A DNA stretch of 64,000 nucleotides, taken from contig JBOGRO010000050.1 of NCBI GenBank assembly GCA_050749465.1, positions 364-64,363 on the forward strand, read 5' to 3'. The notes under the pieces are model-generated. The model was not told the DNA's origin. It saw only the letters and a list, made by a program, of their open reading frames with translations, and did no database searches. The position numbers and the translations under genes were made by a program. Positions 3,731-50,025 of the stretch are shown piece after piece. This DNA is from Thermoplasmata archaeon. Lineage in GTDB: Archaea; Thermoplasmatota; Thermoplasmata; Lutacidiplasmatales; UBA184. Within the stretch, counting starts at the first letter, position 1; each line of letters starts with the position of its first letter.

Positions 3731-4069
3731 AGGACCCTGCGAGGGTATAGCACTCCTCATAGATAAATTCCGGTTATACGCTTCGTGTCCACCGGGCTTT
3801 TCGGAGAGAAAACGACCTTCGACTCTGCCCGCCGAGGGCCGAGACGAGCCGGGCTTCCGGCCCCCTTCCACGGCGACTGTCTACGCACCTCGTAACGGGC
3901 CGAGGCTGCCTGGGCAAACGGGCAGCGGCTCGCCGGTTCCCCGGTAATGTCGAGTTGTCCCACGAAACCGGGGTAAGTCAATATCGGCCCCCGCAGTGCG
4001 CATCTGGGGTTGGGAGCTTCAAAACGGGACCCCCTCCAAAGTGTCGGCGGGTAACCGCGTGGTCGTCGA

Positions 4070-4337
4070 CGCGAACCGGTAGACCCGCCTGGGGTCAGCC
4101 TTTAGAGCACGACCCCCCGAGTCACGACCATGGAGGAGGTTCCGAGATCGGGGAGGAAATCGGTCCCAGCCTGAAGGCGTTGGGGAAACGTGTAGGGTCA
4201 ACAGCTCGCAGCAAGTTGCGTCCTCCATGGCCACCGTTGCTCCCGGCCCCTGGACTTCGCCGAGTGAGAGAGTTCCCGGACGCGTCGGTCTCGGCCTCCG
4301 GCAAACGAGAAGGGCTGGATTCGAACCGGTACTTTTT
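4070..4337 (+). ncRNA. candidate structured RNA with RNase P RNA-like motifs; identity unproven
   Basis: Lies in an ORF-free region. GGGGAGGAAA at 4150-4159 resembles CR-I, and ACGAGAAGGGCTGGATT at 4305-4321 resembles CR-V. AAT+CCAGCC (4158-4171) is complementary to GGCTGG+ATT (4313-4321). ACCGGT at 4075-4080 can pair with ACCGGT at 4325-4330. A T5 run sits at 4333-4337. The topology and size do not fit a canonical type A RNA. Confidence 0.3.
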
Positions 4338-4481
4338 CAGCCGCCTCCGCGCCCGCTCCGCCGCCGTCCCCTCCCCCTCCCGGGTCCGTGACACTCCCTC
4401 ACATTCGACCCCCTAGCTCTTTAGGCCCGGCGCGGGTCGCTACAGTGAGAACTCCTTCCCACCGGGGGGCGGCTCGAATCC

Positions 4482-5909
4482 ATGGATCGTTACGAGCGAG
4501 TGCCGATTCGCGAGGAGAGCAAGCAGGAGCGGATCGAGAAGTTCGCGTTGATCGACGAGCCGTACACGCTCGAGGAGTCGGTCCTCGAGGGCCAACGGTG
4601 CCTGCAGTGCGCGATGCCGTACTGCATCCAGGGGTGCCCGATCACCCAGGACGCCCGCGGCTACAACATCCTCGTCGGGGAGCGCGACTTCGACGGCGCG
4701 GCCCGCCTCGTGCTGCGCGAGAACCCCCTCGCGACCGTGCTGTGCAAGACCTGCTACCACTTCTGCGAGGACGACTGCATCATGACCGGTAAGGGTGTGC
4801 CGATCGCGATCCGTCACCTCAAGCGCGCAGCCCTCGACTACGGGAAATCCGACCTGCTCTACGTGCCCTCGAAACGGAAGGAGGAGCGCGTCGCGGTCGT
4901 CGGCGCGGGTCCGGCGGGCCTCATGGCCGCGTGGGACCTCGCGATCCGCGGCCATCCCGTGACGGTCTACGAGTACGAGCCGTTCCTCGGCGGCCAGATC
5001 AACACGATCCCGCGGTACCATCTCGACCCGGACGACCTCGATACCGACATCGCCCGGTGGAAGAATCTCGACGTCCAGTTCGTCGTCGGGAAGAAGGCGG
5101 GCGTGGACTACACCCCGAAGAGCCTTCTCGCCGAGGGATATGAGGCGGTCCTCGTCTCGATCGGTGCCTCCCAAGCGCGCGAGCTCGGGGTTCCGGGCGA
5201 GGAGCTGCCCGGCGTGTACCACGCGCTCCCGTTCCTGCTCGCGATGAACAAGCGCCCCGAGGGCCTCTTCGGGCGCAAGGGACGTCGGGTGATCGTGATC
5301 GGGGCCGGGGACGTCGCGCTCGATGCCGCGCGCTCCGCGCTCCGCCTGAGCGAGGGCGGGGAAGTGCGCCTCGTCTACCGCCGCGGTCCGGAAGACATGA
5401 AGGCGACCGAGGAGGAGAAGACCGGCGGCGAGATCGAAGGGATCCGCTACGTCTTCTTCCGGGCGCCGAAGGCGATCGTCGGTCGGGAGCACGTCGAAGG
5501 ACTCGTCGTGGAGCGCACCGAGCACGGACCCCCGGACGCGAAGGGCCGGCGCACGCTCCAGGTCGTCCCGAACTCGGAAGAGACGCTCCCGTGCGACATG
5601 ATCATCGTCGCCGTCGGCGAAGTCGCGGACGTCTCGGGTTTTGACCCCGACTACGGCTTCAAGTTCGCCTCGATGGGCTGGCCGGAAGGCAAGCGCGAGG
5701 ATTGGATGACGGACGTGGAAGGTGTCTTCGCGACCGGCGGGCGGTCCGTCGTGCACGCGATGGCCGCCGGCGAGCGGGCCGCGGCCGCGATCGACGTCTA
5801 CCTCGCGAAGAAGCACGGACGCGCCCCGGAGCCCCGACCGGACCCGTTCGGGGGCGCGACGCCGCCCGAGCGTCCGACCGGGTACGGCGGCGCGACCTGG
5901 ACGCCGTAG
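4482..5909 (+). CDS. glutamate synthase small-subunit-like (GltD/PreT-type) FAD/NAD(P)-dependent oxidoreductase with N-terminal Fe-S cysteine cluster
   Basis: 475-aa ORF. N-terminal CLQCAMPYCIQGCP..CKTCYHFCEDDC, a dinucleotide fold VAVVGAGPAGLMAA, and a second fold VIVIGAGDVALDAA. Confidence 0.85.
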   Translation: MDRYERVPIREESKQERIEKFALIDEPYTLEESVLEGQRCLQCAMPYCIQGCPITQDARGYNILVGERDFDGAARLVLRENPLATVLCKTCYHFCEDDCIMTGKGVPIAIRHLKRAALDYGKSDLLYVPSKRKEERVAVVGAGPAGLMAAWDLAIRGHPVTVYEYEPFLGGQINTIPRYHLDPDDLDTDIARWKNLDVQFVVGKKAGVDYTPKSLLAEGYEAVLVSIGASQARELGVPGEELPGVYHALPFLLAMNKRPEGLFGRKGRRVIVIGAGDVALDAARSALRLSEGGEVRLVYRRGPEDMKATEEEKTGGEIEGIRYVFFRAPKAIVGREHVEGLVVERTEHGPPDAKGRRTLQVVPNSEETLPCDMIIVAVGEVADVSGFDPDYGFKFASMGWPEGKREDWMTDVEGVFATGGRSVVHAMAAGERAAAAIDVYLAKKHGRAPEPRPDPFGGATPPERPTGYGGATWTP

Positions 5910-19537: not shown

Positions 19538-19759
19538 TTAAACCGTCTCGATCTCGAGGCGCACCCGGTAGCCGCGGAGGCGGCGGGTGATCTCGTCGGA
19601 GAGGTCGAGGATCTGCTCGCGGTCGGCGGAGCCCTGCCAGTCGTAGACGAAATCGTAGTTCCCGTGGGTCGGGACGAATCCCGAGGTGCGCAGCCGGTCC
19701 GCGATCTCCGACGGCTTCGCTCCCTCGCTGTCGAACGTCACCCGGAGGTACGTTTCCAT
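19538..19759 (-). CDS. hypothetical 73-aa protein
   Basis: Compact ORF with balanced composition: METYLRVTFDSEGAKPSEIADRLRTSGFVPTHGNYDFVYDW... Confidence 0.5.
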   Translation of the reverse strand: METYLRVTFDSEGAKPSEIADRLRTSGFVPTHGNYDFVYDWQGSADREQILDLSDEITRRLRGYRVRLEIETV

Positions 19760-20603: not shown

Positions 20604-20783
20604 CTAGATGTGGACGAAGAGGAGGATCACGAGAAGGACGATCACGCCGTACATGAGATACGTGTACATCCGCCGCGTCTGGGCGCCCTGCTCGCGCTTC
20701 GCGCGGCACGTCTTGCTGCAGGTCTCCTCGCCGGGGGCGCACACCTTGCCGCAGACCTTGCAGTGGCGATGATCGTCGGGCAC
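20604..20783 (-). CDS. DUF2116-like Zn-ribbon small membrane protein (59 aa)
   Basis: My own translation: VPDDHRHCKVCGKVCAPGEETCSKTCRAKREQGAQTRRMYTYLMYGVIVLLVILLFVHI. Below the length cutoff of the ORF track. Confidence 0.65.
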   Translation of the reverse strand: MPDDHRHCKVCGKVCAPGEETCSKTCRAKREQGAQTRRMYTYLMYGVIVLLVILLFVHI

Positions 20784-20834: not shown

Positions 20835-23800
20835 TTAGGGCGCGCGTCGGACGCGCCGGCGATCCGTGCTCGATTCGAGGTCCGGCGCCTCCGCCTCGGG
20901 GTCGAGGGGGTTCACCGGGTCGTCGTCGAACGGCGCGAAGTTCGCGCGCGGTCGCAGCGGAGCGCTGCGCGCGTCGGGGCGAGCCGAGGCCGCCGCGGCC
21001 CGGGTCGCGCGCCGTAGCGAGCGCGCCGCCGCGTCGGTCGGCGGGGCGTCGATGTCGTCGTCCGACGCCGCCATCTGCCGGACGAAGTTGAGCCAGATCC
21101 GGCCCTGGTGGGCGATCGCGCCCTCCATCCGGTCGCGGAGCTCGGTCGTCTGCTCGAGCATCTCCCCTTCGAGGCGGCGCAGCTCGCGGCTGAACTCCCG
21201 CCGGAACTCCTTGAGCCGGGCGTCCGCCGCCGCCGACGGCCCCCCGTCGCGCTGGAGCTCGTCGACCTTGAGCCACGTGCTCCGTACGAGCGGCACCATC
21301 CGGTCCGCCATCACCTGGAGACGTCGGTCGAGGTCCTCGAGGTCCCGCCGGACCGTTTGCTCGACGGCCGCGAGCGCGCTCGCCCGCTCCTTGAGCTGGG
21401 CTTCGACCTGGGCGAGGCGGTCGATCGCCGCCTCCTGCTGCGTGCGGTTCCGGGCCGTGGCGTCCGCGATCCGGGCTTCGAGCGTCTTGTGGTCGGCGAG
21501 CCGCAGTGACTCGACCACTCGGGTCGTACGCTCCCGGACCGCGCGGTCGAACTCGGGGGAGTCGATCGTGTGGGCGAGACCTTGGTCGACGTCGGTCTTG
21601 AGCCGAGCCAGGAGCTCCACATACTTCTCGCGCTCCCGGTCCTGGTCTTCGCGCATCCGCTGGTCGAAGTACGACTGCAGCCGGACCTGGAGTCCGGCGA
21701 GCGCCTGGGTCTGGGCCTCGGACGCCGCGGTCACGCGCGCCTCGTGGGCGAGCTCGAGCCGGCGCTCGGTCTGGGCGAGCTGGTCCTGCCAGCCTTGGAG
21801 CATGTTCTCGCGCTGCTCGGTTCCGCCGACGAGGACCCGGTTCTCGAGGTCCTTCGTCCGGCCGTCCACGAGGAGGCCGAGGCGTTGCTCGAGCTCGCGG
21901 ATCTCGCGGGAGCGGCGCACGTCGGACTCGGAGAGCCGCTCCTTGAGGAGCTCCCGGACGCGACCTTCGATCTCCTCGCGGAGTGTCGCACCCTGCTCCT
22001 TCGCCTCGCGGAGCTCGATATCCATTTGGGCGATCAGCGCCGCCCGGAGGTCCTCCTCGGACTTCGCGCCGCGCGCCTTCGTCTCGTCGATCGACTCCGC
22101 GATCTCCGAGCGCAGCTGCACCCCGAGCGAGTCGGTGGACGCTTTCAGCGCGAGGCGGGACTTCTCGAACTGTTCCGCGAGCTTGGGGCTCACCGTCTCC
22201 CGAAGCTGCCGGGCGATCTCGTCCGGGACGGAGTTCGGGGGGAGCACCGGTCGAGCCTCGACGGCGGCGAGGCGCGCGGCGAGGTCCCCGTGGGACGTCG
22301 CGAGCGCGCGGGACTGGGACTCGGTGAGCTCGCGGACCCGGCGATCCATCGCGGAGTTCGACCGCGACTCGGAATCGAGCACGGCGGCGGTCACGCGCGT
22401 CTCGATCGCCTTCGGGTCGACCGCCGTCGGGAGCCGGGCGGTGACCTCGCGGACCCGGTCGGCCACGTACGACCGAAGCCGGGCATCGGATTCCGCCGAC
22501 CGCGCGGGAGAGAGGCCGGGGTCGGGAGGGAGCAGCGTCGGCGCGACCGGCGCGAGCGCGACGGGCGCGGCTGGCGCCGGCGCGACCGGCGGGGGGGAGA
22601 GCGGCGGAGGGACCGCCGCGCCCGCGGGGAGGGTGGACGGATCGTCCTGTACGGAGACGGGCACGGCGACCGGACCCGGCGAGGGGACGCGGATCTCGGG
22701 CGGCCGCTGCAGCCACGGAGGGACCTGGCTCGTGAGCGTCCGCGCCACCGCCTCGGCGACCGCCGGAGCGGGCCGAGAGTTGGCGACGGCCCCCGCCGTG
22801 ACGTCGGGGTCCGGGTGCGCCTGCAGGTACTGGCTCGCGCGTTTCGCGGCCTCGCCGCTCATCGGGATCGAGCGGCCCCTCGGGCGAGCGAGGAGGAGCG
22901 CGGCGCTCTCCATCGCGGTGCCGATCCGCCACATCTCCTTGCGTCGGTCCTTGCCGCCCTGGCGGTCCGAGTCCTCGAGGTGGCCCCGCAGCCGGTCCGC
23001 CTCGACGAGGTCGACCCGTCGACTGACCTCGACGATCTTCGTGTCGTCGTGGTCGCGAACGTACTGGAGAACCAGGGGCAGCGCCTCCTTCGCGCGGCTC
23101 GCGACCGGCTTCGTCAGGTCGCGGAGCGAGATGGGAGCGGCCTCCCAGCTCTGGAGTCGCTTCGAGTGTCGGTCTCCGGCGGCCTCCCGCTCGGCGACCC
23201 GCATCACCGCGAGCGCGAGCGGGATCTGCTCCGCGAACTCATGCAGGTTGACCTTCCCTTCGGGAAGGAAGTACGGGAAGACCAGGAAGGCCCCGAGGGC
23301 CGTGAGCGACGTCGGGAGGAGCCGCACGAGCTCGCGGACCGCGTCGATCGCGCTCTCCCACTGGTCGGCGGCGACGATGACGACCGGTTCGGTCGTGCCG
23401 CGGTGGAAGAGGAAACCCTCGCCGACCGCCTGGTAGACCGACGGCTCGGGTTCCGCGCGCCGTCGGCCCGCGCCGGGGCGGCCGCCCATCGAGTCCCACG
23501 CCTGGAGTACGGCCCCGCCGAAGTCCCCGCTCGCGATCAGCTGCGGCGTGTCGAGGACGAGCGTTTTCATCCCGAGCCGCGGTCGGTCCTCGGTCGAGAG
23601 GAACATCCGGCCGACGCACGTGTAACGGCCGTTGCCGGCCGGGTAGAGGAAGAGGTTCGGATAGTACGACAGCGTCTGCGCCGGGTCCGGGTCCCAGTAG
23701 TCGTGGGTGTCGGCGACGTTGACCGTCAGGTTGCCGACGAGCCGGATCGTCTCGAGCGTCTCGCGCCGGGCCGGAAAATCCTCGGGGATCGTCGTGTACC

Positions 23801-23894
23801 CGGGGCTTTCGGCCTCGTTGTCCACCTGGCGGCACCAAACGACCGAGACCGGCGCGAATCCGCCGCCGGGCCGAAGGTCGGGGGCGGCCATCAT
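20835..23894 (-). CDS. 1019-aa protein: novel N-terminal globular domain, Pro-rich linker and a roughly 550-aa coiled coil
   Basis: Start ATG 23894 overlaps the GTPase stop (ATGA). The N-terminal roughly 330 aa is not recognisable (..VVWCRQVDNEAESPGYTTIPEDFP..). This is followed by PPLSPPPVAPAPAAP and then long heptad-like Glu/Arg/Leu-rich segments. Confidence 0.75.
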   Translation of the reverse strand: MMAAPDLRPGGGFAPVSVVWCRQVDNEAESPGYTTIPEDFPARRETLETIRLVGNLTVNVADTHDYWDPDPAQTLSYYPNLFLYPAGNGRYTCVGRMFLSTEDRPRLGMKTLVLDTPQLIASGDFGGAVLQAWDSMGGRPGAGRRRAEPEPSVYQAVGEGFLFHRGTTEPVVIVAADQWESAIDAVRELVRLLPTSLTALGAFLVFPYFLPEGKVNLHEFAEQIPLALAVMRVAEREAAGDRHSKRLQSWEAAPISLRDLTKPVASRAKEALPLVLQYVRDHDDTKIVEVSRRVDLVEADRLRGHLEDSDRQGGKDRRKEMWRIGTAMESAALLLARPRGRSIPMSGEAAKRASQYLQAHPDPDVTAGAVANSRPAPAVAEAVARTLTSQVPPWLQRPPEIRVPSPGPVAVPVSVQDDPSTLPAGAAVPPPLSPPPVAPAPAAPVALAPVAPTLLPPDPGLSPARSAESDARLRSYVADRVREVTARLPTAVDPKAIETRVTAAVLDSESRSNSAMDRRVRELTESQSRALATSHGDLAARLAAVEARPVLPPNSVPDEIARQLRETVSPKLAEQFEKSRLALKASTDSLGVQLRSEIAESIDETKARGAKSEEDLRAALIAQMDIELREAKEQGATLREEIEGRVRELLKERLSESDVRRSREIRELEQRLGLLVDGRTKDLENRVLVGGTEQRENMLQGWQDQLAQTERRLELAHEARVTAASEAQTQALAGLQVRLQSYFDQRMREDQDREREKYVELLARLKTDVDQGLAHTIDSPEFDRAVRERTTRVVESLRLADHKTLEARIADATARNRTQQEAAIDRLAQVEAQLKERASALAAVEQTVRRDLEDLDRRLQVMADRMVPLVRSTWLKVDELQRDGGPSAAADARLKEFRREFSRELRRLEGEMLEQTTELRDRMEGAIAHQGRIWLNFVRQMAASDDDIDAPPTDAAARSLRRATRAAAASARPDARSAPLRPRANFAPFDDDPVNPLDPEAEAPDLESSTDRRRVRRAP

Positions 23895-25054
23895 CCCCCC
23901 TTCGTCGCCCGACGATCGAGGATCTTCTCGCACGCCCGCGCGAGTGGTAACGTCGTGTTGACCATCACCGGGACCCCCATCGTCGGGGTCCCGACGGTCG
24001 GTGCCTCTTGGCCGCTCTCCCCGATGAAGAGAGGATGGCCCTCCCCGGTCGAGACGGCGCTGGAGACGAGGAAGACGTCGTCCCGGACGGAGATCCCCTG
24101 GCCCTCCTGCGCGACGAGGATCGTCCCCATGCCCGCCCCATCGCGCCGGAGCAGGAACTCGAACGCGTCGAACGAGCTCTGGAAGGTGCGGTCCCGGACG
24201 GTCGACTCGACCTCGGAGTAGAACTCCTTGAGTTTGTCCGCCTTCGAGATCGCGATCACGAGCGGGACGTCGTGGCTCTTCGAGTAGCGGAAGACCCCGC
24301 GCGCGAGGTTCACCTGCTGCGCCTGGTCCCGGAGCGACGGGAGCGCCGGCGAGAGCAGGAGGATGATCGCGTCCGCGCCGTGGACGAAGCGCCCGAGGAG
24401 GGTCAGGCCGTGGCGCCAGAGATCGCGCCGGTCGGGCCGCCAGGAGTCGAAGTGGGGGATGACCCGGCAGCTCTTCTCCGAGACCTCGTCCTCCGCCGAC
24501 TCGACCCAGAGCCGGTCGTAGGTGAAGTAGTCGGCGATGATCCCGCCGGCCTCATCGATCGTGTTGAGCTCGAGCGGCCTCGAACCGTCGCCGCCCGGGG
24601 CGCCGTAGCGGAAGCGGAGCTTCATCTCGACGAACTGGTTGAACTTCGTCGGGAGCGGGTACTTCGTGAGGACCCCTTGCTCCTCTCGCCCGGCGGAGAG
24701 TTCGACCCAGAGCTTGCGCCGGTCCTCCATCGGACGGTTGACGTAGTACCGGGTCGTCGTCTCGAGGCTCCCCTCGGGGTCGGTCGGGTCGGTCGTCTCG
24801 TACGTCGTCTCCTCCAGCGCGACGTCGTTCTCGAGGTCCCCGTAGAGCGGGATCTGGTTCGAGTCGGCCCGGGACGGGATGTACAGGACCGGGAGGTTCA
24901 GGCCGAAGTGCCCGGAGAGGAAACGGAAGTACGTGGTCTTCCCCGAGGCCGGGATCCCGATCACCGCGATGCGGGCCGTCTCGGCGCTCGGCTTCGTCTC
25001 GCGCTTCGCGCCCGGCGCCCGCCGGGTCTTTGTGGTGACCTTGACCGCCGGCAT
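23891..25054 (-). CDS. P-loop GTPase (small-GTPase-like G1-G5 motifs) with a large insert
   Basis: G1 GIPASGKTT, G3 DEAGG, G4-like ISKADK, G5-like SSAV. About 130 aa lie between G1 and G3. ATG 25054 sits 10 nt after the vWA stop and is preceded by GGAG. Confidence 0.75.
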   Translation of the reverse strand: MPAVKVTTKTRRAPGAKRETKPSAETARIAVIGIPASGKTTYFRFLSGHFGLNLPVLYIPSRADSNQIPLYGDLENDVALEETTYETTDPTDPEGSLETTTRYYVNRPMEDRRKLWVELSAGREEQGVLTKYPLPTKFNQFVEMKLRFRYGAPGGDGSRPLELNTIDEAGGIIADYFTYDRLWVESAEDEVSEKSCRVIPHFDSWRPDRRDLWRHGLTLLGRFVHGADAIILLLSPALPSLRDQAQQVNLARGVFRYSKSHDVPLVIAISKADKLKEFYSEVESTVRDRTFQSSFDAFEFLLRRDGAGMGTILVAQEGQGISVRDDVFLVSSAVSTGEGHPLFIGESGQEAPTVGTPTMGVPVMVNTTLPLARACEKILDRRATKGG

Positions 25055-25064
25055 GGAGTGCTCC

Positions 25065-26570
25065 TTACCGCATCTCCGCGAGGCATATCTCGATAAAGTC
25101 GAGCGCCCCCTCGACCGCCGGGCCATTCGCGGAGAGGTCGAGACGGGCGTCCTGCAACATGCCGAAGACCTGACCGACCGCCTCCTCGTGCTTCTGCGCG
25201 GCGTCCTGGAGGTCGCCGGCCCCGGCGAGCCGGGTCAGCTCGTACGTGCCGCGCAGCTCCATCAGCCGCGCGAATAGGGTCATCAGGCGTTCCCGGGTCG
25301 TCCCATCCGCCCCGCCGAGCCGGTGCTCGGTGTCATCGATGAATCGGACGAGAGTTTCGGTCTCCTTATCGTTCTGCATCCGTGCCTGCAGTAACGCGAG
25401 CCTCCGAAGAATCTTCGGTTGGACCGAGCGCGGCAGCTTTTCGGCCTCCGCCCAGGCCTGGAGGAGGGCGCGCGCGGCCTCGACCACCGCGCGGTTCGAG
25501 TACTGGATCCGGGCCTCCCAGTAGAGCCGCGTGACCGGCGGAAGCACCGACGACGCCTTGGCGAGGAGGGAGAGCGCGACATCGGGCTGACCGGCCATGT
25601 ACGCCTCGACGACCTCCCCGAGCGGCCCGTACCGCTCGCGGAGGTAGGCGGGCGTCGTCCCGCCGGTCGTCTTCACGACGTCGACCTCGAGGTCCGGCGT
25701 CTCCGAGTAGGTGGGGTCGGCCGACTGCGACGCACCGTGCGCGGAGTGGATGCGCGATACCGTCGCGTGCTGCTGCGGCTCCTTGAGCGCCCTCGCAGCG
25801 TTCGCGGCGTGCCGGGCGAGCTCCTCCGGGTGGAGCTCCTCGATCGGCCGATCGTCCTCGTAGCCGACGTCGAGGAACGCGTTGACCATTTGGGCGAAGA
25901 GCTGCGAGCCCGTCGTGACCTCCTGGAAGCTGAAGGCCGCCGGCAGGCCGACCTCACCGGCTCGGCGCTCCATCTGGGAAATGAGGTAGTTGATGCGAGC
26001 GGCGTCGACCCCCTTGTCCTTCTCTCCGCCGTTCCCGATCCCGATCACGCGGAGGGCGAGCTGCGATCCCGCGGGCAGCATGTACGACACGAGGTCGATC
26101 CGGCCCGGGGAGATATTCGGGCCTTCCGGGAGCTGGACGTCGAAGCGGGACGAAGCGTTGTCCCAACCGTCCGTGACGAGGACAAGGTTCCCCTGGACGC
26201 CGAGGGTGCCCATCCGCAAGAGGTCGGCCCCGACCGCGAGGGCATCCCAGATTGCCGAGCGGCCGCTGGGGGTCAGGAGCGAGATCAAGTTCTCGATGTA
26301 CGGTAGGTTCTCGCGGTGGATCTCGGTCAGCGGGACCGCGACCCGGACCGTCTCCGTGAACGTGACGAGTCCGAAGAGCGAGCCCGAGGTCGAGGCGTCC
26401 TGGAGGATGCGGAACACCGCGGTGCGGGCGACCTCGATCTTCTGGCGCTCGGGCTGGTCGGGGGTCGCGTCCGGGAGCGGCGCCAGCATGCTCTTCGACA
26501 GGTCGAGGAGCAGCACGTTCCGCTCGCGGTGGGGAGGGAGGGCTGCGGAGGTTCCGGAATCGTCCGCCAT
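25065..26570 (-). CDS. von Willebrand factor A (vWA) domain protein with C-terminal helical-repeat domain
   Basis: MIDAS DLSKSM..T..D(GWDN) with NVLLLDLSKSM and LVLVTDGWDNAS. The C-terminal roughly 230 aa is alpha-helical and TPR-like. Confidence 0.8.
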   Translation of the reverse strand: MADDSGTSAALPPHRERNVLLLDLSKSMLAPLPDATPDQPERQKIEVARTAVFRILQDASTSGSLFGLVTFTETVRVAVPLTEIHRENLPYIENLISLLTPSGRSAIWDALAVGADLLRMGTLGVQGNLVLVTDGWDNASSRFDVQLPEGPNISPGRIDLVSYMLPAGSQLALRVIGIGNGGEKDKGVDAARINYLISQMERRAGEVGLPAAFSFQEVTTGSQLFAQMVNAFLDVGYEDDRPIEELHPEELARHAANAARALKEPQQHATVSRIHSAHGASQSADPTYSETPDLEVDVVKTTGGTTPAYLRERYGPLGEVVEAYMAGQPDVALSLLAKASSVLPPVTRLYWEARIQYSNRAVVEAARALLQAWAEAEKLPRSVQPKILRRLALLQARMQNDKETETLVRFIDDTEHRLGGADGTTRERLMTLFARLMELRGTYELTRLAGAGDLQDAAQKHEEAVGQVFGMLQDARLDLSANGPAVEGALDFIEICLAEMR

Positions 26571-26969: not shown

Positions 26970-27761
26970 GTGGACAACTGGTCGCTCGGGGCGGGGGCTG
27001 TGGCGCTCGCGGTCCTGCCGGTCTACCTCTATGTCGGCGAACGGCTCCGGCGGCGGCCGGTGCCCGCGAGCGCGCAACTCGCGTCGTCCCAGTTCGTCGT
27101 CTGGTGGTGGGGAATCGGTCTCGCGGGCGCGTCCAGCGGCGTGGAGGCGATCCTCTGGGCATTCGGCGTCTTGACCCTCCCCACAGCCATCACCTTCCAG
27201 GTCCTGGTCGTGATCCTCGACTGCGTCTTCCTCTGGGGGCTACTCGGCTACCTGACCTATATCTACACGGGCCGGAACCGGCTCGTACCCTGGAGCGTAT
27301 TCTACATCGCGTTCTTTGTCGTGACGCTCAACTACGAGTTCACCCTCCAACCAATCGGGGTCTCGGCGCCTCGGGGCGCCCCGCAGCTCGTCTTTGCGCA
27401 CGTGGCCGTGCTCGGGGACCCCGTGGTCATCTACGTTCTCTTTGGGCTCCTCGTTCCCGAGATCGCGGGGCTCGTGTTGTACTTCACCCTCTTCTTTCGG
27501 ACCCACGATCGGACGCTCCGATACCGGATCGGACTCGTGACCCTGAGCCTCGCGCTCTGGTTCGGGGTGACGTTCTACACGCCCCCCTCGAGCGCGATCC
27601 TGCCCCAGCTGTGGACCCTGCTGTCGGCTATCATTGAGGCGTCCGCCTCCCTGATCGCCCTCCTCGCCTACTTTCCGCCTGAGGGGGTTCAACGACGATT
27701 CCGGATCGGCTCGTTGTCCAATTCCGAAGAGCGGCCGGAGGGGCGGCCCGCGAGCGAATGA
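26970..27761 (+). CDS. polytopic (about 7 TM) membrane sensor module, HisKA_7TM-like
   Basis: 263 aa, 7-8 hydrophobic helices. The stop overlaps the HK start (ATGA at 27758-27761). Confidence 0.65.
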   Translation: MDNWSLGAGAVALAVLPVYLYVGERLRRRPVPASAQLASSQFVVWWWGIGLAGASSGVEAILWAFGVLTLPTAITFQVLVVILDCVFLWGLLGYLTYIYTGRNRLVPWSVFYIAFFVVTLNYEFTLQPIGVSAPRGAPQLVFAHVAVLGDPVVIYVLFGLLVPEIAGLVLYFTLFFRTHDRTLRYRIGLVTLSLALWFGVTFYTPPSSAILPQLWTLLSAIIEASASLIALLAYFPPEGVQRRFRIGSLSNSEERPEGRPASE

Positions 27762-29008
27762 CCCCGCGACCTCGCGCCCTCCTCGCGGTCGTCGTCGCGG
27801 GGGCGATCTTCCGTCGGGACCGCCCGGTCGGGCCCGACGCCCTGCTTCCGTTCCTGCTCGAGTCGGTGTCGGGCGGGATGCTGCTTCTCGATCGATCGCA
27901 CAAGGTCCGGTTCGCCACGGGGTCGGTGCATTCGCTCCTGGGGTACGAGCCGGGCGAGATGGTGGGGCGGGACGTGAGCGCGTTCGTCGACCCCGAGTCG
28001 CACGCGGCGCTCCGCACGTTGCTCGAGAGCGCGGCCGACCTTCGGCCGGACCACAGGGCCGAGGTGAATGGGCTCGGGCAGGGGGGCCGACGGGTGCCGT
28101 TGCGCCTCTCGGCGCGCCGGGGCGACGACCACGGCGCGCCGGTCTACGCCCTCTACTTGCAGGACCTCGCGGAGCGGGAGGCGCTCGTTAACGCGCTCGC
28201 CCTGCGCGCGGCGGAGCTTGCGCGATCGAACCGCGACCTCGAGCAGTTCGCGTACGTCGCCTCCCACGACCTGCAGGAGCCGCTGCGGATGGTCGGCAGC
28301 TACACCCAGCTCGTCCACCAGCGCTACGAGGGCCAGCTCGACGCCGACGGCCGGGAGTACCTCCAGTTCGCCCATGACGGCGTGCTGCGGATGCAGGAGA
28401 TGATCGACGACCTCCTCACCTTCGCTCGGCTCGGCAGCCGGGGGCAGCCGTTCGCGGCGATCTCGCTCGACCGGATCGGCGAGCAGGCGCTGACGAACCT
28501 CGAGGTGGCCGTCCGGACCCGGAAAGCGCAGGTGCAGGTCGACCCCTTGCCGGTCATCCAGGGGGACCGAGTGCAGCTCGTCCAGCTGTTCCAGAACCTG
28601 ATCGGCAACGCGCTGAAGTTCTGCAAGAGCGACGTGCCGCGCGTCCGGGTCCGCGTCGCCGATTCGGGGTCGGAGTGGACCGTCACGGTCTCCGACAACG
28701 GGATCGGTATCTCCCCCGAATTCCAGGAGAAGGTCTTCCAGATCTTCCAGCGGTTGCACACCCGAGAGGAGTACCCGGGCTCGGGGATCGGTCTCTCGAT
28801 CTGCCGACGCGTCGTGGAGCGCCACGGGGGCCGGATCTGGGTGGAGAGCACCGGCACCCCGGGCGAGGGGACCGCGTTCCATTTCACGTTCCCGAAGTCA
28901 GGACCGGCGCCCGCGACGGTCGCGGCGAGCGCCCCGGTCGCCGTCGACGCGGGGGTCGCCGAGCGGGCGCAGCAGCTCATCGAGGACCGCCTCCGCGAGC
29001 TGATCTAG
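27758..29008 (+). CDS. PAS-domain sensor histidine kinase
   Basis: PAS region (LLLDRSHKVRFATGSVHSLLGYEPGEMVGRDV), H-box FAYVASHDLQEPLRMV, and ATPase N/G boxes (NLIGNALKF, DNGIGI, GSGIGLSI). Confidence 0.9.
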   Translation: MTPRPRALLAVVVAGAIFRRDRPVGPDALLPFLLESVSGGMLLLDRSHKVRFATGSVHSLLGYEPGEMVGRDVSAFVDPESHAALRTLLESAADLRPDHRAEVNGLGQGGRRVPLRLSARRGDDHGAPVYALYLQDLAEREALVNALALRAAELARSNRDLEQFAYVASHDLQEPLRMVGSYTQLVHQRYEGQLDADGREYLQFAHDGVLRMQEMIDDLLTFARLGSRGQPFAAISLDRIGEQALTNLEVAVRTRKAQVQVDPLPVIQGDRVQLVQLFQNLIGNALKFCKSDVPRVRVRVADSGSEWTVTVSDNGIGISPEFQEKVFQIFQRLHTREEYPGSGIGLSICRRVVERHGGRIWVESTGTPGEGTAFHFTFPKSGPAPATVAASAPVAVDAGVAERAQQLIEDRLRELI

Positions 29009-29094
29009 CGAGGCGGCCGGCGGGGGTATCCGGAGGCGTTCGGACCGCCCATGCGCAGTCTTATAGTGCCGGACCCCCCTCGACCCGGACAGCG

Positions 29095-29547
29095 ATGACG
29101 CCCGCCGCCCGCGACTTCACCGCGCCGGTCGATATCCTCATGGTGGAGGACAATCCGGCGGACGCCCGCCTCGTCGTCGAGGCGATGAAGGACAGCCAGA
29201 TCCGCCATGAACTCCACGTCGTCCCCGACGGGCTCCAGGCACTCGACTACCTCCACCGGCGCGGCGCCCACGCGGGCGCGAACCGCCCGAGCCTCATCTT
29301 CCTCGACCTCAACCTGCCCCGGATCGACGGGCGGGAGGTCCTCCGCCAGATCAAGGCCGACGCGGACCTCCGTCGGATCCCCGTCGTGGTCATGTCCTCC
29401 TCCCGCGCGCCGGAGGACGTCGCGCGTGCGTACGACGCCCACGCGAACTGCTACGTCCGCAAGCCGATCGACTTCACGCAGTATCGGGACGTCGTGCGGA
29501 AGATCGAGTCGTTCTGGCTCAGTGCCGTTCAACTGCCGGTGAGCTGA
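29095..29547 (+). CDS. single-domain response regulator (REC)
   Basis: ILMVEDNPADARL, phospho-acceptor FLDLNLP, and the K in YVRKP. ATG 29095 lies within the longer ORF. Confidence 0.85.
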   Translation: MTPAARDFTAPVDILMVEDNPADARLVVEAMKDSQIRHELHVVPDGLQALDYLHRRGAHAGANRPSLIFLDLNLPRIDGREVLRQIKADADLRRIPVVVMSSSRAPEDVARAYDAHANCYVRKPIDFTQYRDVVRKIESFWLSAVQLPVS

Positions 29548-29575
29548 CCCCCCCGCCTCGCCTCGGGAGCGGTCT

Positions 29576-30733
29576 GTGGCGCCCGGAGTGCTCCGCGTTC
29601 TGCTGGTCGAGGACCAGACGGCGGACGCCAAGCTGGTCGAGCTCGCGCTGGGGGGTGCCGCTTCGACCCGATTCCGCGTCGTTCGGGTCAGCCGCGTCTC
29701 GGAGGCGGTCGCGCGGATCGGTACGACGGCGTTCGACGCGGTCCTCCTCGACCTCGGGCTCCCCGATAGCCAGGGACTGGACGGCCTCGCGCGGGTCCGG
29801 CAGGCTTCCCCGACGACCGCGGTGGTCGTCCTCTCCGGCTCGCAGGACCCTACCCGGGGTCGAGCGGCGCTCGTGGCGGGTGCGCAGCGCTTCGAGACGA
29901 AGCGGGTCTACCGCCGGGGCGAGCTCGAGCGGGCCATCCGGTCGGCCGTCGCGCGGGCGAAGGCGGAGGCAGAGTTCGCGCGGGGCGGCGCGATCTCCGA
30001 GGCGGCCGGCCGTGAGCTCGGTGCGCTCGCGGACGGCGTGATCGCGTTCGACCGCGGCCGCGTCGCCTACGTCAACGACGCGGGCGCGGCGCTCTGGGCG
30101 ACCCTCACCGTATCGGACGCACCCCTCGCACGATCGATCGTCACGGTGGCCGGTCCGAACCGCTCCGGTCCGTCGGTGTGCGAGGAACTCGTCTTCCGTC
30201 GCTTGGACGGCAGCGGGGTGCGACTTCGCTACCTGGTGCGTCGCACTCCGTCCGCCGACGGCCGCGCGCTGCTCTACCTCGAGCGTCTCGAGCCCGACCC
30301 CGGCGTCGAGGGACCCCGTCGTCCCCGCGAGTCGGCCCGGGAAGGCGCCCGCCCCTCGACGCCGCCGCCGGTGATCGACCCATCGGCATGGCGGGACCTC
30401 GGGGAGCTCGCCCGCGGCGACCCCACGTTCGTTCCGTCCCTCGTCCGCGTCTACCTCGAGGAGGGGGGCCGCCTTTTCGCCGAGGTGAACCGCGCGGCGC
30501 AGGACGCTGAGATGCGAACCGTCGGTCGGATCGCCCACAACCTGAAGTCGGCGTCGGCCCAGGTGGGAGCGTTGTCGCTCTCCCGCACCCTCGCGCGCCT
30601 CGAGCGGGCGGCCGAGCGCGCGGAAGCGGAGCAGGTCGAGGAGCGCCTCCGCGAGGCCGTGGACGAGTTCGTGCGCGTCGGAGACGCGCTGCACGCGCTC
30701 GCCGAGACCGACCGCGACGACGCGGGCGGCTAG
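29576..30733 (+). CDS. REC - PAS-like - Hpt hybrid phosphotransfer protein
   Basis: N-terminal REC (VLLVEDQ.., LLDLGLPD), a central PAS-like segment, and a C-terminal Hpt motif AHNLKSASAQVGA. Confidence 0.8.
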   Translation: MAPGVLRVLLVEDQTADAKLVELALGGAASTRFRVVRVSRVSEAVARIGTTAFDAVLLDLGLPDSQGLDGLARVRQASPTTAVVVLSGSQDPTRGRAALVAGAQRFETKRVYRRGELERAIRSAVARAKAEAEFARGGAISEAAGRELGALADGVIAFDRGRVAYVNDAGAALWATLTVSDAPLARSIVTVAGPNRSGPSVCEELVFRRLDGSGVRLRYLVRRTPSADGRALLYLERLEPDPGVEGPRRPRESAREGARPSTPPPVIDPSAWRDLGELARGDPTFVPSLVRVYLEEGGRLFAEVNRAAQDAEMRTVGRIAHNLKSASAQVGALSLSRTLARLERAAERAEAEQVEERLREAVDEFVRVGDALHALAETDRDDAGG

Positions 30734-31173
30734 AGGTCCTTGCGCATTCGCTCGAGCAGCTCGCGGATCACGGTCGCACGGACCGGTTTTTGCAGGACGT
30801 CGAACGCGCCGCCGCGCACGAGCTCGCGCACACGCGGGTCCTCCGGCGGGTTGCCGGTGCAGACGACGAGCTTCAGCGCGGGGTTCTTCGCGAGCATGTA
30901 GCGCGCGGCCTCCGGGCCGCCGTCGGCGTTGGTGTTCGACGCGAGGAACGCGAAGAAGCTCTCGCTCCCCTGGGCGAGCGGGGCGCCCATCGGGAGGTTG
31001 ATGTCGACGAAAACGATCTCGGGGCGCTCCTGGTTGAACAGCTCGATCGCCTCGCTCGCCGTTCCCGCCTCGAAGATCGCCGCCTCTTCGACGCCGCTGC
31101 TCTTCAGCGCTTGGCGGATCGTCAGTCGGACGACGGGCGAATCCTCGACCAGGAGTACCTTCGACTCACTCAT
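30730..31173 (-). CDS. CheY-like single-domain response regulator
   Basis: VLLVEDSPVVR, FVDINLP, and LVVCTG..K-type residues. Confidence 0.85.
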   Translation of the reverse strand: MSESKVLLVEDSPVVRLTIRQALKSSGVEEAAIFEAGTASEAIELFNQERPEIVFVDINLPMGAPLAQGSESFFAFLASNTNADGGPEAARYMLAKNPALKLVVCTGNPPEDPRVRELVRGGAFDVLQKPVRATVIRELLERMRKDL

Positions 31174-31281: not shown

Positions 31282-32925
31282 TCAGACGATCCGCAGGAGC
31301 TCATACGGCCCTCCGTTGGAGCCTTCCGCGAGGACGAACCCGGACGTCCACGGCTTGAGACCGTAGAGGAAGACCCGTCCCAGGCGGTTGCGCAGCCGGA
31401 TGCGGATGGCGGCCACGGAGAGGATCCGGTTGAACAGCTCGGACCCCGGCCGACCGATCATGAACAGGTGAAGGTTCGCGCCCCCGAGCGTCGACTGGAT
31501 CCCGGCGAGGAAATTCGCGGCGACGTCGGGCGTGATCGAGATCTTCATCGACGCCGCGAGTGACTGAAGGCCGGTCTCGTAGAGGAGGACGAGGCCCGGG
31601 TGGGTCTCGGACGGCGGACCCTTTAGCCAGCGGGTCAGCTCCGCTCCCTTCGCGTCCGGGTCGGAGAGCGTCGGGACGAGGCGCTCGGGAGGGACGACCG
31701 CTTGTAGGAACTCCGGGTGCGACTGACCGGTCGTGGTCGCCAGTTGGTGGCTGACGTCCACCACCCGCATCCGCTGGCAGATCAGCGCCGGGTCGGCGGC
31801 ACCGGCCACGCTCGCCCAGATCTCCTCCGCGGAGCGAGCGAGCGATGGGACGAGCAGCACGCGCCCCCCCGCGTGGAGCGTCCAGCGAATCGCCGGGCGC
31901 AGCAGGTGACCCAGCATCTGGTCGGGGAGGTCGTCATCGGCCTCGAAGATGCTGAGCCGGCCGAGCGGGAGTCGGCCGAAGCTCTCGACGAAGCTCTTGG
32001 ACCCCGGCCACAGGTAGTTCGGGAGCGGGTCCGGCTCCGGCTCGTATTCGCCCGGTTGCAACTGTCCGTACGCACGGATCGGGTCGATGCATTGGAACTT
32101 GGCGCCGTCGACGGTGTACGGATATGCCGAGTTCGCGATCCGGATCCCTCGGAGCTTCGGGAGGGAGAGCCACCGTTCGAGTCGGTCGTCGTTCACTTCT
32201 CGGCGGGTGACGATCACACCGTTGACGAGGTAATCGAGCGGGGTCTGATCTTCCCGCTCCACGACCAGCACGAGGTGACAGGGGACGTGCCCCATCCGAC
32301 GGAGGAGGATCCGCTCGATCTCGGAGCGCTCGATCGTCCGCCCGGAACTCGTCGAGCGCCGTCCGAGGTACTGCTCGACGAGCGCGTCCCAGGAGTCGAT
32401 GACGACCACGGACGGACCGTCCCGAGGTAGACGGCTCCACGCATCCTGGACCGGGGAGGGGAGGTGAAGGAACTCGGTGAGCTCCCGGCGCTCGCGGGGG
32501 CTCGGGTCGTCGACGAGGAGCGTCGGCTCCTTCGTTCCGTCCGGTGGGTCGAACGGCGGTTCGACATCGCTCGAGTCGACGACCTGGATTCCGCCGGAGT
32601 TCGCGCCGAGCCAGGGGAACTCCCGGTGCAACTCGCCGGTCGAGACTCGGCTCGTGATCAGGATCTTCTCGCCGGGCGAACTCTCGAGCAGCGCGAGGCA
32701 AAGGGTCGACTTGCCCGACCCCGGTGGTCCCCGGACGAGGAGCGTTTGGGGGCCCCGCAACTGCAGGAAGGCTCGCAACTCTGCGGGTAGCCGAACCGCC
32801 GTACTCACTGCAGGACACCGCGCCAACCGGCGCGGGCACCTCGGGATGTGAAGGGATAGCAGGGGTATTAGAACCTCGCTCCCCGCGGCCCCCCGGAAGT
32901 TTGCGCGAGGATTTCCCGGCGGCAT
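31282..32925 (-). CDS. KaiC/GvpD/RAD55-family RecA-like ATPase (one intact P-loop domain plus a degenerate second domain)
   Basis: Walker [10 protein letters not shown] and Walker [11 protein letters not shown]. The second half lacks a P-loop. ATG 32925 lies about 24 nt from the palindromic TATA. Confidence 0.7.
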
Positions 32926-48334: not shown

Positions 48335-49588
48335 CTACGCCCCTTCGGGCTCGCTGGAGAGCATGCGCATCAGCCGCGCGAGCGCCTGGTCGGCGCCGCG
48401 CAACTCGCGGTTGCGCAGGAGGTCGGTGACGTCGCGGATCTTGGCCGCCGCCTCGCGGGCGACCTCGCTGTCGGGGGGGAGCGTACGAACCCGGCCCGCG
48501 AGGCGGCGGGCCTTCTTCAGCAGGCGGTCGAGCGTCTCCGCTTCCGTCTCGGCCGGAGACGCGCCGGCGGGGGCGGCGGCTATCGATGCCGCGCCGACCG
48601 CGACCTCGCTGAGCTCCCGGGACTGCTCGAGCCGCTCGATCTCACGGCGCAGCTCGCGCACGCTCGCGACGGCGTCGGTGAGTCGACCCTTGCGCAGGTG
48701 GCGCGTCGCCTCCCCGTGGAGCCGCCGGGCAGAGGCGCTCGGCGGGTGCTCTTCCGAGTAGCGACCGAGGACCTTCTCGTGGCGTCCGAGCTCCTCCTCG
48801 AGCGACGTCGGGATCGCTTCGTGCAGCAACATCAGTGTCTGGGCCGCGGCCTGGGCGATCCCGTCGAGCCCGTCCTCGGTGATGTCGGGCTCGCGGAGCC
48901 GGTCGCGGATCTCCGAGACCTCGCCCGCGATCTCTCCGAGCGGGATCCCGAGGTCGGTCGCCTCCTTACGGAGAGTATCGATCTGCCGGAGCAGTCCCTG
49001 GAGGCCCCGCCAATCGGACTCGAACTGCGCGACGCGGCGCTCGGTCTCGACCAGCAGGCCCGAGGCCGTCTCGCGCTGACCGCCGGTCACGGCGTCCTCG
49101 AGACCCTTCAGGTCGTTGACGAGCGCGAAGCGGACCCCGGTCTCGCGCAGCGCCGCCTCCCTCGACTGCAGCGACTGGACGCGCTTTTGGAGCAGCTCGT
49201 CCGTCTGCCGGTCGAGACTGCGCTGCGCGCGGCGGAGGACGTCGAGCGCCTCGTTGACGTGGCCCTCGGCCTCGTTGAGCGCCGCCTGGCAGAGATCGCT
49301 CGTCACGTCCGGGGCGCCGCGGCCCAGTTCTCGAACATACTCCAGCTTCGTCCGGAGGTCCCGGCTGATCGTCGCGCACAGTTCCGCCTCGGCGGAGACC
49401 GGCCCGGGCGCGAGGGGAGCCGGTTTCTCGGACGGGAGCAGCGGAGTGTCGGCCTCCGGGGTGCTGGAACCGTCGGGTCCGAGCGAGCGAAGGCCTTCGA
49501 TCGCGAGGGCAGTCGGGAAGCCGCAGACCGAGCAGTGACCGACCGTGGACGGGATCGCTTGCTCGCAGATAGGACAGCTGGTGGCCAC
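48335..49588 (-). CDS. 417-aa N-terminal Zn-ribbon plus helical-repeat protein
   Basis: CPICEQAIPSTVGHCSVCG, followed by a Pro-rich linker and long helical segments. The stop lies 3 nt before the next gene. Confidence 0.65.
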   Translation of the reverse strand: MATSCPICEQAIPSTVGHCSVCGFPTALAIEGLRSLGPDGSSTPEADTPLLPSEKPAPLAPGPVSAEAELCATISRDLRTKLEYVRELGRGAPDVTSDLCQAALNEAEGHVNEALDVLRRAQRSLDRQTDELLQKRVQSLQSREAALRETGVRFALVNDLKGLEDAVTGGQRETASGLLVETERRVAQFESDWRGLQGLLRQIDTLRKEATDLGIPLGEIAGEVSEIRDRLREPDITEDGLDGIAQAAAQTLMLLHEAIPTSLEEELGRHEKVLGRYSEEHPPSASARRLHGEATRHLRKGRLTDAVASVRELRREIERLEQSRELSEVAVGAASIAAAPAGASPAETEAETLDRLLKKARRLAGRVRTLPPDSEVAREAAAKIRDVTDLLRNRELRGADQALARLMRMLSSEPEGA

Positions 49589-49905: not shown

Positions 49906-50025
49906 CGCTGAGGGGGAGAGTGTCCGGGGCCCGGGAGGGTTTCCGGGCGCCTTTTGAACTCCCGCGATGCATACGCACCACCAGATCTCGAATCTGGCGC
50001 CTTGGCCGAGCTAGGCTACCTCAGC
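49906..50025 (-). tRNA. tRNA-Ser(CGA) with an approximately 33-nt intron in the T-loop
   Basis: Acceptor GCTGAGG/CCTCAGC plus discriminator G. D-arm GCCT..AGGC. Anticodon arm CCAGA-TTCGAGA-TCTGG, with the anticodon at 49988-49990. Long variable arm GGTGC-GTAT-GCATC. T-stem GGGAG/CTCCC, interrupted at about 49920-49952. Confidence 0.85.

Follow-up and report, generated by a model that had tools for sequence, protein, structure and literature searches.

Among the genes carried by a 64,000-nucleotide stretch of DNA from a Thermoplasmata archaeon (the whole of which is referred to here as the window), three consecutive open reading frames (ORFs) of the minus strand, at positions 20835-26570, raise the question of what they do and whether they do it together. 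They encode a von Willebrand factor A (vWA) protein (P1), a GTPase (P2) and a protein of 1019 aa (P3), and will be called the triad. The observations gathered here support the view of the triad as one co-conserved, tightly coupled unit, in which P2 and the N-terminal head of P3 are orphan families with a two-clade distribution, and whose P1, P2 and P3 head are under purifying selection stronger than that on most of the neighbouring housekeeping genes. We give an even chance to the reading that the triad is a lineage-specific, vertically inherited module, made of a GTPase switch, its partner and a scaffold, which serves core cell organisation and not defence. Its carriers are Lutacidiplasmatales-like soil and peat archaea, together with one sister clade.

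All features of the triad lie on the minus strand. P1 (25065..26570) is a cytoplasmic protein of 501 aa with a vWA domain, a polar linker and a C-terminal helical domain; P2 (23891..25054) has 387 aa and reads as a divergent P-loop GTPase of the TRAFAC type with two inserts; and P3 (20835..23894), of 112.7 kDa, is built of a head, a linker, a stalk and a tail. No transmembrane (TM) segments were found in any of the three. The 10-nt spacer between P1 and P2 (25055..25064), GGAGCACTCC, holds a Shine-Dalgarno-like GGAG, so that the P1 stop region reads TAA-GGAGCACTCC-ATG and leads into the P2 start at 25054. The P2/P3 junction reads GGATGATGG, where the P3 ATG at 23894 overlaps the TGA of P2 in an ATGA (23891..23894); a second in-frame ATG, 3 nt downstream of the first, gives a 1-nt overlap with the P2 stop. 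The three consecutive minus-strand ORFs, the GGAG spacer and the ATGA overlap, all of them reported in a preliminary description of this DNA, were confirmed by reading the sequence, and on identical public contigs independent gene calling arrives at lengths of 501, 387 and 1018 aa for P1, P2 and P3.

The window comes from a Thermoplasmata metagenome-assembled genome (MAG), probably of Lutacidiplasmatales-like kind. Exact copies of P2 occur in a Logan assembly and in a GenBank MAG contig labelled Thermoplasmata archaeon, which bears out the archaeal origin proposed earlier, and archaeal ribosomal proteins and eIF6 are encoded among the neighbouring genes. The G+C content of the window (~70%) fits the described Lutacidiplasmatales (TMEG), archaea of acidic soils with genomes of 2.1 Mb and a GC of about 69% (PMC9287336). 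Candidatus Lutacidiplasma silvani is also among the genomes that match the P3 head.

One genome per GTDB species was scanned, and 150 of these species genomes encode the P3 head; of the 80 listed, all but one are MAGs of Thermoplasmata or Thermoplasmatota, the exception having been deposited merely as ‘bacterium’. A second, divergent clade of Thermoplasmatota MAGs (clade 2, clade 1 being that of the window) has the triad as well, in unchanged order, at identities of 42% (P1), 59% (P2) and 38-41% (P3 head). The three genes are adjacent, co-oriented and intact in each of the 48 related loci with about 8 kb of flank on each side, which confirms the co-conservation on which the idea of a joint system had been made to depend. 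The coupling is kept as well: among 79 qualifying loci, the P2-P3 junction could be scored for an in-frame ATG in 51, at -1 nt in 27, at -4 nt in 13 and at 0 to +13 nt in the rest, and 7-19 nt part the P1 stop from the P2 ATG in most orthologous loci.

The surroundings of the triad are less constant. The genes upstream vary from genome to genome, and the membrane protein and two-component cluster of the window are limited to the nearest relatives; downstream, a block composed of DUF2116, an archaeal phosphopantetheine adenylyltransferase (PPAT), a 73-aa gene, DUF5611 and an M50 peptidase is usually syntenic. In several genomes, an ABC transporter operon on the opposite strand parts P3 from this block and leaves the triad intact. 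One such insertion, between P3 and DUF2116 in locus L041 (11379-15440), comprises genes for PBP_like_2, two BPD_transp_1 permeases and ABC_tran, and similar ones are seen in L033, L034, L037 and L043. Rearrangements thus flank the triad on both sides, with none inside it. A functional link of the triad to the two-component, KaiC-like and ribosomal genes that flank it was considered and rejected, given that none of them is conserved beside it elsewhere, and so was a link to DUF2116 and PPAT, in view of the intervening ABC operon. In clade 2, two extra same-strand genes stand directly upstream of the vWA gene (in L006 at 4850-5089 and 3383-4744; also in L003-L005 and L007), one for a Cys-rich protein of 75-79 aa whose end overlaps the vWA start, and another for a protein of 339-453 aa with a conserved N-terminus of ~90 aa, a Pro/Ala-rich linker and a helical C-terminus. 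They adjoin no clade-1 triad and may be additional components in clade 2.

The strength of selection was estimated against ten related species, with dS near saturation and the dN/dS values therefore approximate. Over the ten species, dN/dS runs at 0.09-0.20 (P2), 0.09-0.26 (P1) and 0.10-0.27 (P3 head), and among the neighbours at 0.29-0.46 (PPAT), 0.24-0.47 (M50) and 0.13-0.28 (PGM); to the nearest species, the three triad regions fall at 0.09-0.15 and the three neighbours at 0.13-0.43. The values of dN to the nearest species are 0.05-0.06 (P2), 0.08-0.10 (P1) and 0.06-0.09 (P3 head), next to 0.27-0.36 (PPAT), 0.23-0.27 (M50) and 0.14-0.18 (PGM). Mean protein distances over 25 species follow the same trend, with 0.19 for P2, 0.33 for the P3 head and 0.36 for P1, and 0.57-0.75 for the neighbours. 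The P3 stalk is under less constraint than the head, its dN/dS being 0.29-0.35 in comparisons with the closest species and reaching 0.63 with species farther away. Housekeeping genes, PPAT and M50 among them, adjoin the triad, ribosomal proteins being encoded farther off, and the slower evolution of the triad than of most of these neighbours makes it look like core machinery rather than defence.

There is one exception among the neighbours: the unnamed 73-aa gene (19538-19759, minus strand), with a mean distance of 0.25 and a dN of 0.03-0.09, is as constrained as the triad. Its product, which has no match in Pfam or NCBIfam, comes close to P2 in conservation, with identities of 75-90% within clade 1 and of 58-59% in clade 2 and a dN/dS of 0.04-0.18, and the gene is syntenic in both clades. 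As for co-evolution, a mirror-tree comparison finds the best correlation between the distances of P1 and P2 (r = 0.89), with a partial r of 0.71 after controlling for neighbours.

Of the three proteins, P1 is the one that a known family accounts for. It is a vWA family member, since two Pfam models match it above their curated cut-offs (VWA_2 at 2e-9 and 38.4 bits, cut-off 27; VWA at 4e-6 and 27.7 bits, cut-off 23.8). The vWA domain takes up about aa 1-235 and is followed by the polar linker and by a helical, possibly TPR-like domain at about aa 300-501. A metal-ion-dependent adhesion site (MIDAS) motif of the DxSxS form, D23-L-S25-K-S27 (26490..26504), is read in the translation, and the clade-2 orthologue, only 42% identical, keeps it as DTSKS along with the stretches GRSAIWDAL (GxSAIWDAL) and LVLVTDGWDN. 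Judged by position only, S105 (GRS105AIWDAL) and D134 (LVTD134GWDN) would be further MIDAS ligands. The best NCBIfam match of P1, at 4e-5 and far under the cut-off, is the vWA part of a cobaltochelatase subunit. The intact MIDAS motif described before was therefore found as stated; of the helical-repeat domain claimed for the C-terminal half, the helical character stands, and the repeats would be TPR-like, the library scan of that half giving only a faint TPR_19 match (E 0.35).

On its ordered G1, G3, G4 and G5 motifs, P2 is a TRAFAC-class P-loop GTPase. G1 (Walker A) is read as G33-I-P-A-S-G-K-T40 (24935..24958), G3 (Walker B) as D167-E-A-G170 (24545..24556) with an invariant Glu after the Asp, the guanine-specificity motif G4 as S270-K-A-D273 (24236..24247), a variant of [NT]KxD with Ser for Asn/Thr that resembles the AKAD of septins, and G5 as S332-A333 (24056..24061), after a predicted strand at 327-331. 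All four motifs are invariant across both clades, and in a low-confidence AlphaFold model they are preceded by strands in canonical order (27-33, 158-167, 265-269 and 327-331). Besides these motifs, the protein has a basic tail at its N-terminus (aa 1-25), a conserved helix at its C-terminus and two inserts, the first beta-rich (about aa 50-128) and the second at about aa 179-206.

No finer affiliation emerged from the family libraries: P2 reaches the threshold of no model in Pfam, NCBIfam, PADLOC or PHROGs, and its sub-threshold matches are to small_GTP (E 0.019), GTP_EFTU (E 0.07, near G4) and the P-loops of FeoB and Der (0.2-0.9). A P2 profile run against PDB sequences returned nothing past P-loop similarity, and hhalign aligned it to H-Ras through the P-loop alone, a weak negative in view of the shallow profile (Neff 1.5). 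The AlphaFold model is poor (predicted local distance difference test, pLDDT, of 45) because the alignment is shallow, with sequences of 82-92% identity plus one at 58-60%. A Foldseek search with this pLDDT-45 model lists kinesin motors first (E 2e-3 to 5e-2), then septins and MglA, the latter being the match of highest probability (0.92), and all of the matches have E > 1e-3; such a list would support ‘TRAFAC-like’ and nothing finer. Kinship with kinesins or myosins was rejected, since the SSR and DxxGxE switch motifs are missing from P2, whose G4 has kept xKxD. Its homologues form 354 clusters at 90% identity, the best 120 of which are all at least 82% identical, and at 50% identity hardly more than a single cluster remains, apart from fragments. 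When 1.84 billion representatives of clusters at 50% identity were searched exhaustively with phmmer (E<=1e-3), 15 matches came back, one being a full-length clade representative (60% identity) and almost all of the others fragments of the same family (57-86%); no GTPase outside P2's own family was found among these representatives.

The P3 head (aa 1-345; 22860..23894) is modelled with confidence (pLDDT 83, predicted TM-score, pTM, of 0.86). The model suggests a beta-alpha-beta3-alpha2 sandwich at aa 17-135, a Rossmann-like alpha/beta domain at 151-280 and two long helices at 284-336. Column identity in the head is 0.7-0.95, many Arg, Asp and Glu residues are invariant, and so are the signatures WCRQVDNEAESP, DTxDYWDPDP and GRMFLSTEDRPRLGxKT. 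The most conserved stretch of the whole of P3 is WCRQVDNEAESPGYTTIPEDF, at aa 20-40, with 95% column identity, which is modelled as a low-confidence loop; a segment so conserved and yet so poorly modelled would be typical of one that takes on order when it binds a partner.

The head had been described as unassignable to any family, and it proved so. It matched no family in Pfam, NCBIfam, PADLOC or PHROGs; a Pfam scan of 22 head homologues at E<=10 gave no match either, longin, DENN, GAP1 and tubulin included, and a hmmsearch of PDB sequences with the head profile found nothing. By Foldseek, the model has no PDB chain at E<1e-3 and nothing meaningful among viral models. Its best PDB match is 7mge_C, a chain of the C9orf72-SMCR8-WDR41-ARF1 complex (E 5.8e-3, probability 0.51, TM-score 0.24), whose two large non-propeller subunits are both longin-DENN proteins; next come the longin of Lst4 and an Asgard roadblock-longin (E 0.5-0.9), amid unrelated dehydrogenases. 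Compared as a whole, the order of secondary-structure elements in the head model would be compatible with longin, DENN and d-DENN. An hhalign comparison of the head profile with human C9orf72, whose sequence was checked against PDB, gave a probability of 0.2, with low power owing to a single-sequence target and a shallow profile (Neff 2.5).

Beyond the head, a linker rich in proline and alanine (aa 346-470; 22485..22859; P 23%, A 20%) carries a conserved short motif, VPPWLQRP...VPVSVxDDPS, the PPW core of which is also present in clade 2. It is followed by a helical stalk (aa 471-945; 21060..22484) rich in R, A, L and E and almost free of Pro and Gly. This region had been taken for a heptad-like coiled coil, and that description is not borne out: the hydrophobic period peaks at 3.6-3.74, above the 95th percentile of shuffles, and the periodicity test shows no heptad signal at 3.5. 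The autocorrelation has lags of 4, 11 and 22, and Gly/Pro breaks fall every 40-80 aa, so the stalk is better described as long, segmented, amphipathic and helical; self-BLAST finds no internal repeats in it. The C-terminus of the short P3 of clade 2 corresponds by homology to the final ~100 aa of this stalk (...QGRIWLNFVRQM). The tail (aa 946-1019 plus stop codon; 20835..21059) is variable, acidic and proline-rich, with an NFAPFDDDP motif. In clade 1, P3 measures 945-1207 aa in all; in clade 2, its 559-564 aa comprise the same head, the PPW linker motif and the C-terminal ...QGRIWL... helices, and a short stalk.

How could such proteins work together? With its G1, G3, G4 and G5 motifs intact, P2 would act as a guanine-nucleotide switch, and the P3 head as its dedicated partner, whether a regulator, similar to a GTPase-activating protein (GAP) or a guanine-nucleotide exchange factor (GEF), or an effector. 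We propose the head as the GTPase partner because the P3 gene is immediately downstream of the P2 gene and overlaps it, because the confident model begins with an alpha/beta sandwich followed by an alpha/beta domain, because the best structural matches, weak as they are, are to longin-DENN, Lst4-longin and Asgard roadblock-longin proteins, and because the most conserved segment is a low-confidence loop. This loop at aa 20-40, with its invariant Arg, Asp and Glu, would likely be a contact or catalytic element. The stalk may self-associate or span a distance, in such a way that the nucleotide state of P2 would drive the assembly or disassembly of a scaffold or tether. The MIDAS of P1 may clamp, in a metal-dependent manner, an acidic residue of a partner, be it P3, P2 or a cellular target, with the helical-repeat domain as a putative docking platform. 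The physical complex, the contact between head and GTPase, the role as a scaffold and the cellular process to which it would contribute (scaffold, tether, polarity or membrane organisation) are what we infer from these features, and the NTP-gated assembly proposed in the preliminary description appears to us reasonable but unproven.

Several points weigh against this core-cell module. The contacts between the proteins of the triad are putative, and the near saturation of dS makes the dN/dS values approximate. The distances of the P3 head run parallel to those of the neighbouring M50 peptidase as well (r = 0.79), which leaves the mirror-tree signal non-specific and no more than suggestive. The fixed gene order, being that of one order-level clade, could partly be plain vertical synteny. 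With a pLDDT of 45 for the P2 model, what can be said of its fold would rest on motifs. As for the head, its likeness to longin and DENN proteins is borderline and without backing from sequence methods, and an unnamed viral model scores like the longin-DENN match (E 3.1e-3), which suggests the level of noise; we regard this likeness as a lead, not a finding. That the head could be a genuine prokaryotic longin plus DENN-like regulator, outside Asgard archaea and eukaryotes and mounted on a tether-like stalk, is a model-based idea that we think distinctly unlikely. Were it true, the conserved W-x4-D-x4-S-P loop and the invariant R22, R96, R104 and R106 would act as the WD, GP and Arg-finger elements of GAPs of the C9orf72, SMCR8 and FLCN type, and a lineage of euryarchaeal grade would own a self-contained system of GTPase, regulator and long tether, with a MIDAS adaptor.

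No close homologue of any of the three proteins has been characterised, as had been anticipated, but their architecture is not without precedent. The vWA/FtsZl1 operons join a vWA protein, a diverged P-loop GTPase and a protein with a head and a coiled coil, and have been read as ‘membrane-remodelling’ (Makarova and Koonin 2010, PMC2875224); their neighbourhoods overlap the tubulin-containing GAP1-N2 GTPase-centric systems of Kaur et al. 2020 (PMC7159879). The likeness to the triad is one of architecture only: a MIDAS-intact vWA domain, a highly diverged P-loop GTPase annotated ‘hypothetical’, and a head with an extended coiled-coil or helical region and a helical C-terminus. The proposed role in GTP-dependent assembly is also shared. 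However, the P3 head has neither the GGGTG(S/T)G signature nor a match to Tubulin or Tubulin_2 in Pfam or to FtsZ/tubulin structures of the PDB by Foldseek, P1 and P2 are devoid of TM or secreted parts, and OmpA, kinase and FNIII partners are absent. Moreover, FtsZl1 is patchy and operon-variable, whereas the triad is narrow, vertical and strongly constrained.

The DO-GTPase/GAP1 systems (Kaur, Burroughs, Iyer and Aravind 2020, PMC7159879) are the other close parallel. In them, a GAP1 protein with three globular domains is encoded just downstream of the GTPase, and the GAP1-N2 neighbourhoods include vWA proteins as well as tubulin and coiled-coil proteins. The same survey of conflict systems records a few archaeal occurrences, one of them in a Thermoplasmata species, the type of system not being specified (PMC7159879). 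The triad resembles these systems in its TRAFAC GTPase with a Walker B Glu (DEAG, D167-E168, in P2), in the partner of three sub-domains encoded immediately downstream and, for some subtypes, in the vWA and coiled-coil parts. It differs from them in that neither P2 nor P3, in either clade, has even a faint Pfam match to DO-GTPase, GAP1-N/M/C or GASH. DO-GTPases are often duplicated and provided with a zinc ribbon or TM segments, and P2 is single-copy with neither; the triad also lacks effector/EAD domains, is not mobile, is present in every related genome examined and evolves slowly. Judged by the defining family tests, the triad thus appears to be like both kinds of operon in architecture and a member of neither. 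The earlier assertion that no characterised system has this exact composition holds inasmuch as the triad has no Pfam match to the DO-GTPase, GAP1 or tubulin families that define those systems, but similar architectures had already been described in the two works cited (PMC2875224, PMC7159879).

Three other kinds of system bear comparison. With small-GTPase and roadblock-longin pairs (MglA-MglB) and the eukaryotic longin-DENN regulators (C9orf72-SMCR8, FLCN-FNIP, DENND; PMC3521125, PMC12290439), the triad has in common a GTPase gene beside one whose product would begin with an alpha/beta sandwich of longin/roadblock type, followed by an alpha/beta domain and helices, although P2, with 387 aa and two large inserts, contrasts with a Ras-like protein of ~200 aa, and the P3 head, which has no sequence or profile signal of longin, roadblock or DENN (TM-score 0.24), is fused to ~650 aa of linker and stalk. 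Pairs of a MoxR (AAA+) protein and a vWA protein (RavA-ViaA, CoxD-CoxE, the ChlI-ChlD Mg-chelatase, midasin) also join an NTPase to a vWA adaptor whose MIDAS clamps acidic residues on the client, but the NTPase of the triad is of the TRAFAC GTPase class instead of an AAA+ ATPase, and there is no MoxR gene nearby. Septins share with P2 the xKAD form of G4 (AKAD in septins, SKAD in P2) and are GTPases with long helical regions, and septin chains are among the Foldseek matches of P2. Nevertheless, P2 has no Septin Pfam match or septin unique element, its helical region is on a separate protein, and its model is too poor for an assignment at the level of fold.

It could be argued that the triad is a remote, ‘domesticated’ descendant of a DO-GTPase/GAP1 or vWA/FtsZl1 operon, where P2 would be a very divergent DO-GTPase, the three-part P3 head a GAP1-like partner, P3 would combine the roles of GAP1 and of the coiled-coil protein, and fixation in this lineage would have served a cellular function. 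The overlap of P3 with the P2 stop, the three sub-domains of the head model, the MIDAS-intact vWA and head/extended coiled-coil/helical C-terminal proteins of GAP1-N2/FtsZl1 neighbourhoods, and the few archaeal conflict-system occurrences on record, including that of one Thermoplasmata species (type not specified), all speak for such a descent. We nonetheless hold it to be rather unlikely, in the face of P2 and P3 proteins that, in either clade, have no Pfam match to DO-GTPase, GAP1, GASH, FNIII or tubulin, of a phmmer search that reached no GTPase outside the P2 family, and of a P3 with no GGGTG(S/T)G and a head with no structural match to FtsZ or tubulin. Neither a second GTPase, nor a zinc ribbon or TM segment in P2, nor a GASH/FNIII gene accompanies the triad, whose distribution is neither mobile nor patchy. 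A different proposal, and one raised by the preliminary description, is that of an active anti-virus or conflict system in which an NTP-gated sensor and effector would assemble. The combination of a vWA protein, an NTPase and a large protein of variable length does recur in conflict systems (PMC7159879), the stalk and tail of P3 vary in length and sequence, and PADLOC (PADLOC-DB v2) gives marginal best matches to PtuA (E 0.0035, through the P-loop only) and ZorA (E 0.055, through the helical tail). These last matches are not significant, though, and a PHROGs scan of the triad proteins gave none; no plasmid or phage homologues were found, family-library scans detected no effector domain in the triad, and family scans saw no GASH, FNIII or effector/EAD domains in the triad or its flanks. 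The locus is the same, chromosomal and with a fixed downstream setting beside housekeeping genes, in every related genome examined, P1, P2 and the P3 head are among the slowest-evolving genes of the neighbourhood, and there is no horizontal spread past the two sister clades, for which reasons we set the defence option aside and give it very little credit.

There is also the simpler thought that the three genes have no joint function and stay together through inherited gene order in a young clade. DUF2116, PPAT, the 73-aa gene and M50, which are probably unrelated, are largely syntenic in both clades as well, and M50, like P1 and P2, shows distances correlated with those of the P3 head. Yet the start/stop overlap and the 7-19-nt spacers are kept across the family, insertions and rearrangements flank the triad and never fall within it, all three proteins belong to orphan families with the same two-clade distribution, and the P1-P2 pair has the highest partial correlation (0.71); mere neighbourhood seems to us very unlikely. 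Least probable of all, and to be given hardly any weight, is a role of the triad on DNA, with P3 as a chromosome protein of the SMC/Rad50 type or of another known kind with a long coiled coil. P3 is certainly long and helical, and the basic N-terminal tail of P2 could, by its composition, bind nucleic acid. However, P3 has no Walker A or B, no ABC signature and no Pfam match to SMC_N, Rad50 or the hinge, in agreement with the earlier suspicion that it is no ordinary protein of this type; its only head is N-terminal, without a half-head at the C-terminus, its period of 3.6-3.74 is not heptad-like, long antiparallel arm halves are absent, and the head model matches no SMC structure.

If the triad is indeed a module of core cell organisation, one order-level group of abundant acidic-soil archaea would depend on a GTPase machine missed by Pfam, NCBIfam, PADLOC and PHROGs. 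Its P2 family is without detectable relatives in about 15 billion predicted proteins, and its head folds confidently in the model without a clear structural relative. It would represent a new branch of the theme that joins a vWA protein, a divergent GTPase and a head-and-stalk protein, the function of which is disputed between membrane remodelling and conflict, and the fact that its form is chromosomally fixed and strongly constrained speaks for an architecture capable of serving core cell biology. The novelty has its bounds: the triad is built from orphan families, but the architecture itself is a recurring one, the taxonomic scope is narrow and the organisms are uncultured. Being soluble, the triad proteins offer a target for testing GTPase regulation of the longin/roadblock type in such modules outside Asgard archaea.

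Other features of the window are worth recording. Just downstream of P3, the DUF2116 gene (20604-20783, minus strand) encodes a treble-clef zinc-ribbon protein that looks tail-anchored because of its strongly hydrophobic C-terminal helix (2.48 in a 19-residue Kyte-Doolittle window), and the archaeal-type PPAT that follows has a C-terminal extension of ~110 aa. On the other side, a cluster at 27758-31173, with a histidine kinase, three receiver-domain proteins and an Hpt protein, is not conserved beside the triad in other genomes. Next to it is one of two genes for KaiC/GvpD-type P-loop ATPases, a GvpD_P-loop protein of 508 aa (31282-32808, minus strand), the other being a KaiC-like protein of 876 aa (51110-53740, plus strand). 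ARAGORN called a tRNA-Ala (CGC, 85 nt) at 48373-48457 and a tRNA-Ser (CGA, 84 nt) at 49937-50020, calls that are doubtful in a window of 70% GC and have no Rfam match at the gathering score, with a sub-threshold tRNA match of 21.8 bits at 49968-50025. Farther along the plus strand, a 1547-aa protein (56386-61029) consists almost wholly of TPR repeats, recognised by many TPR families with E down to 5e-48, and a gene at 62324-63490 encodes an SPFH/Band-7 domain protein with three C-terminal zinc ribbons fused to it.

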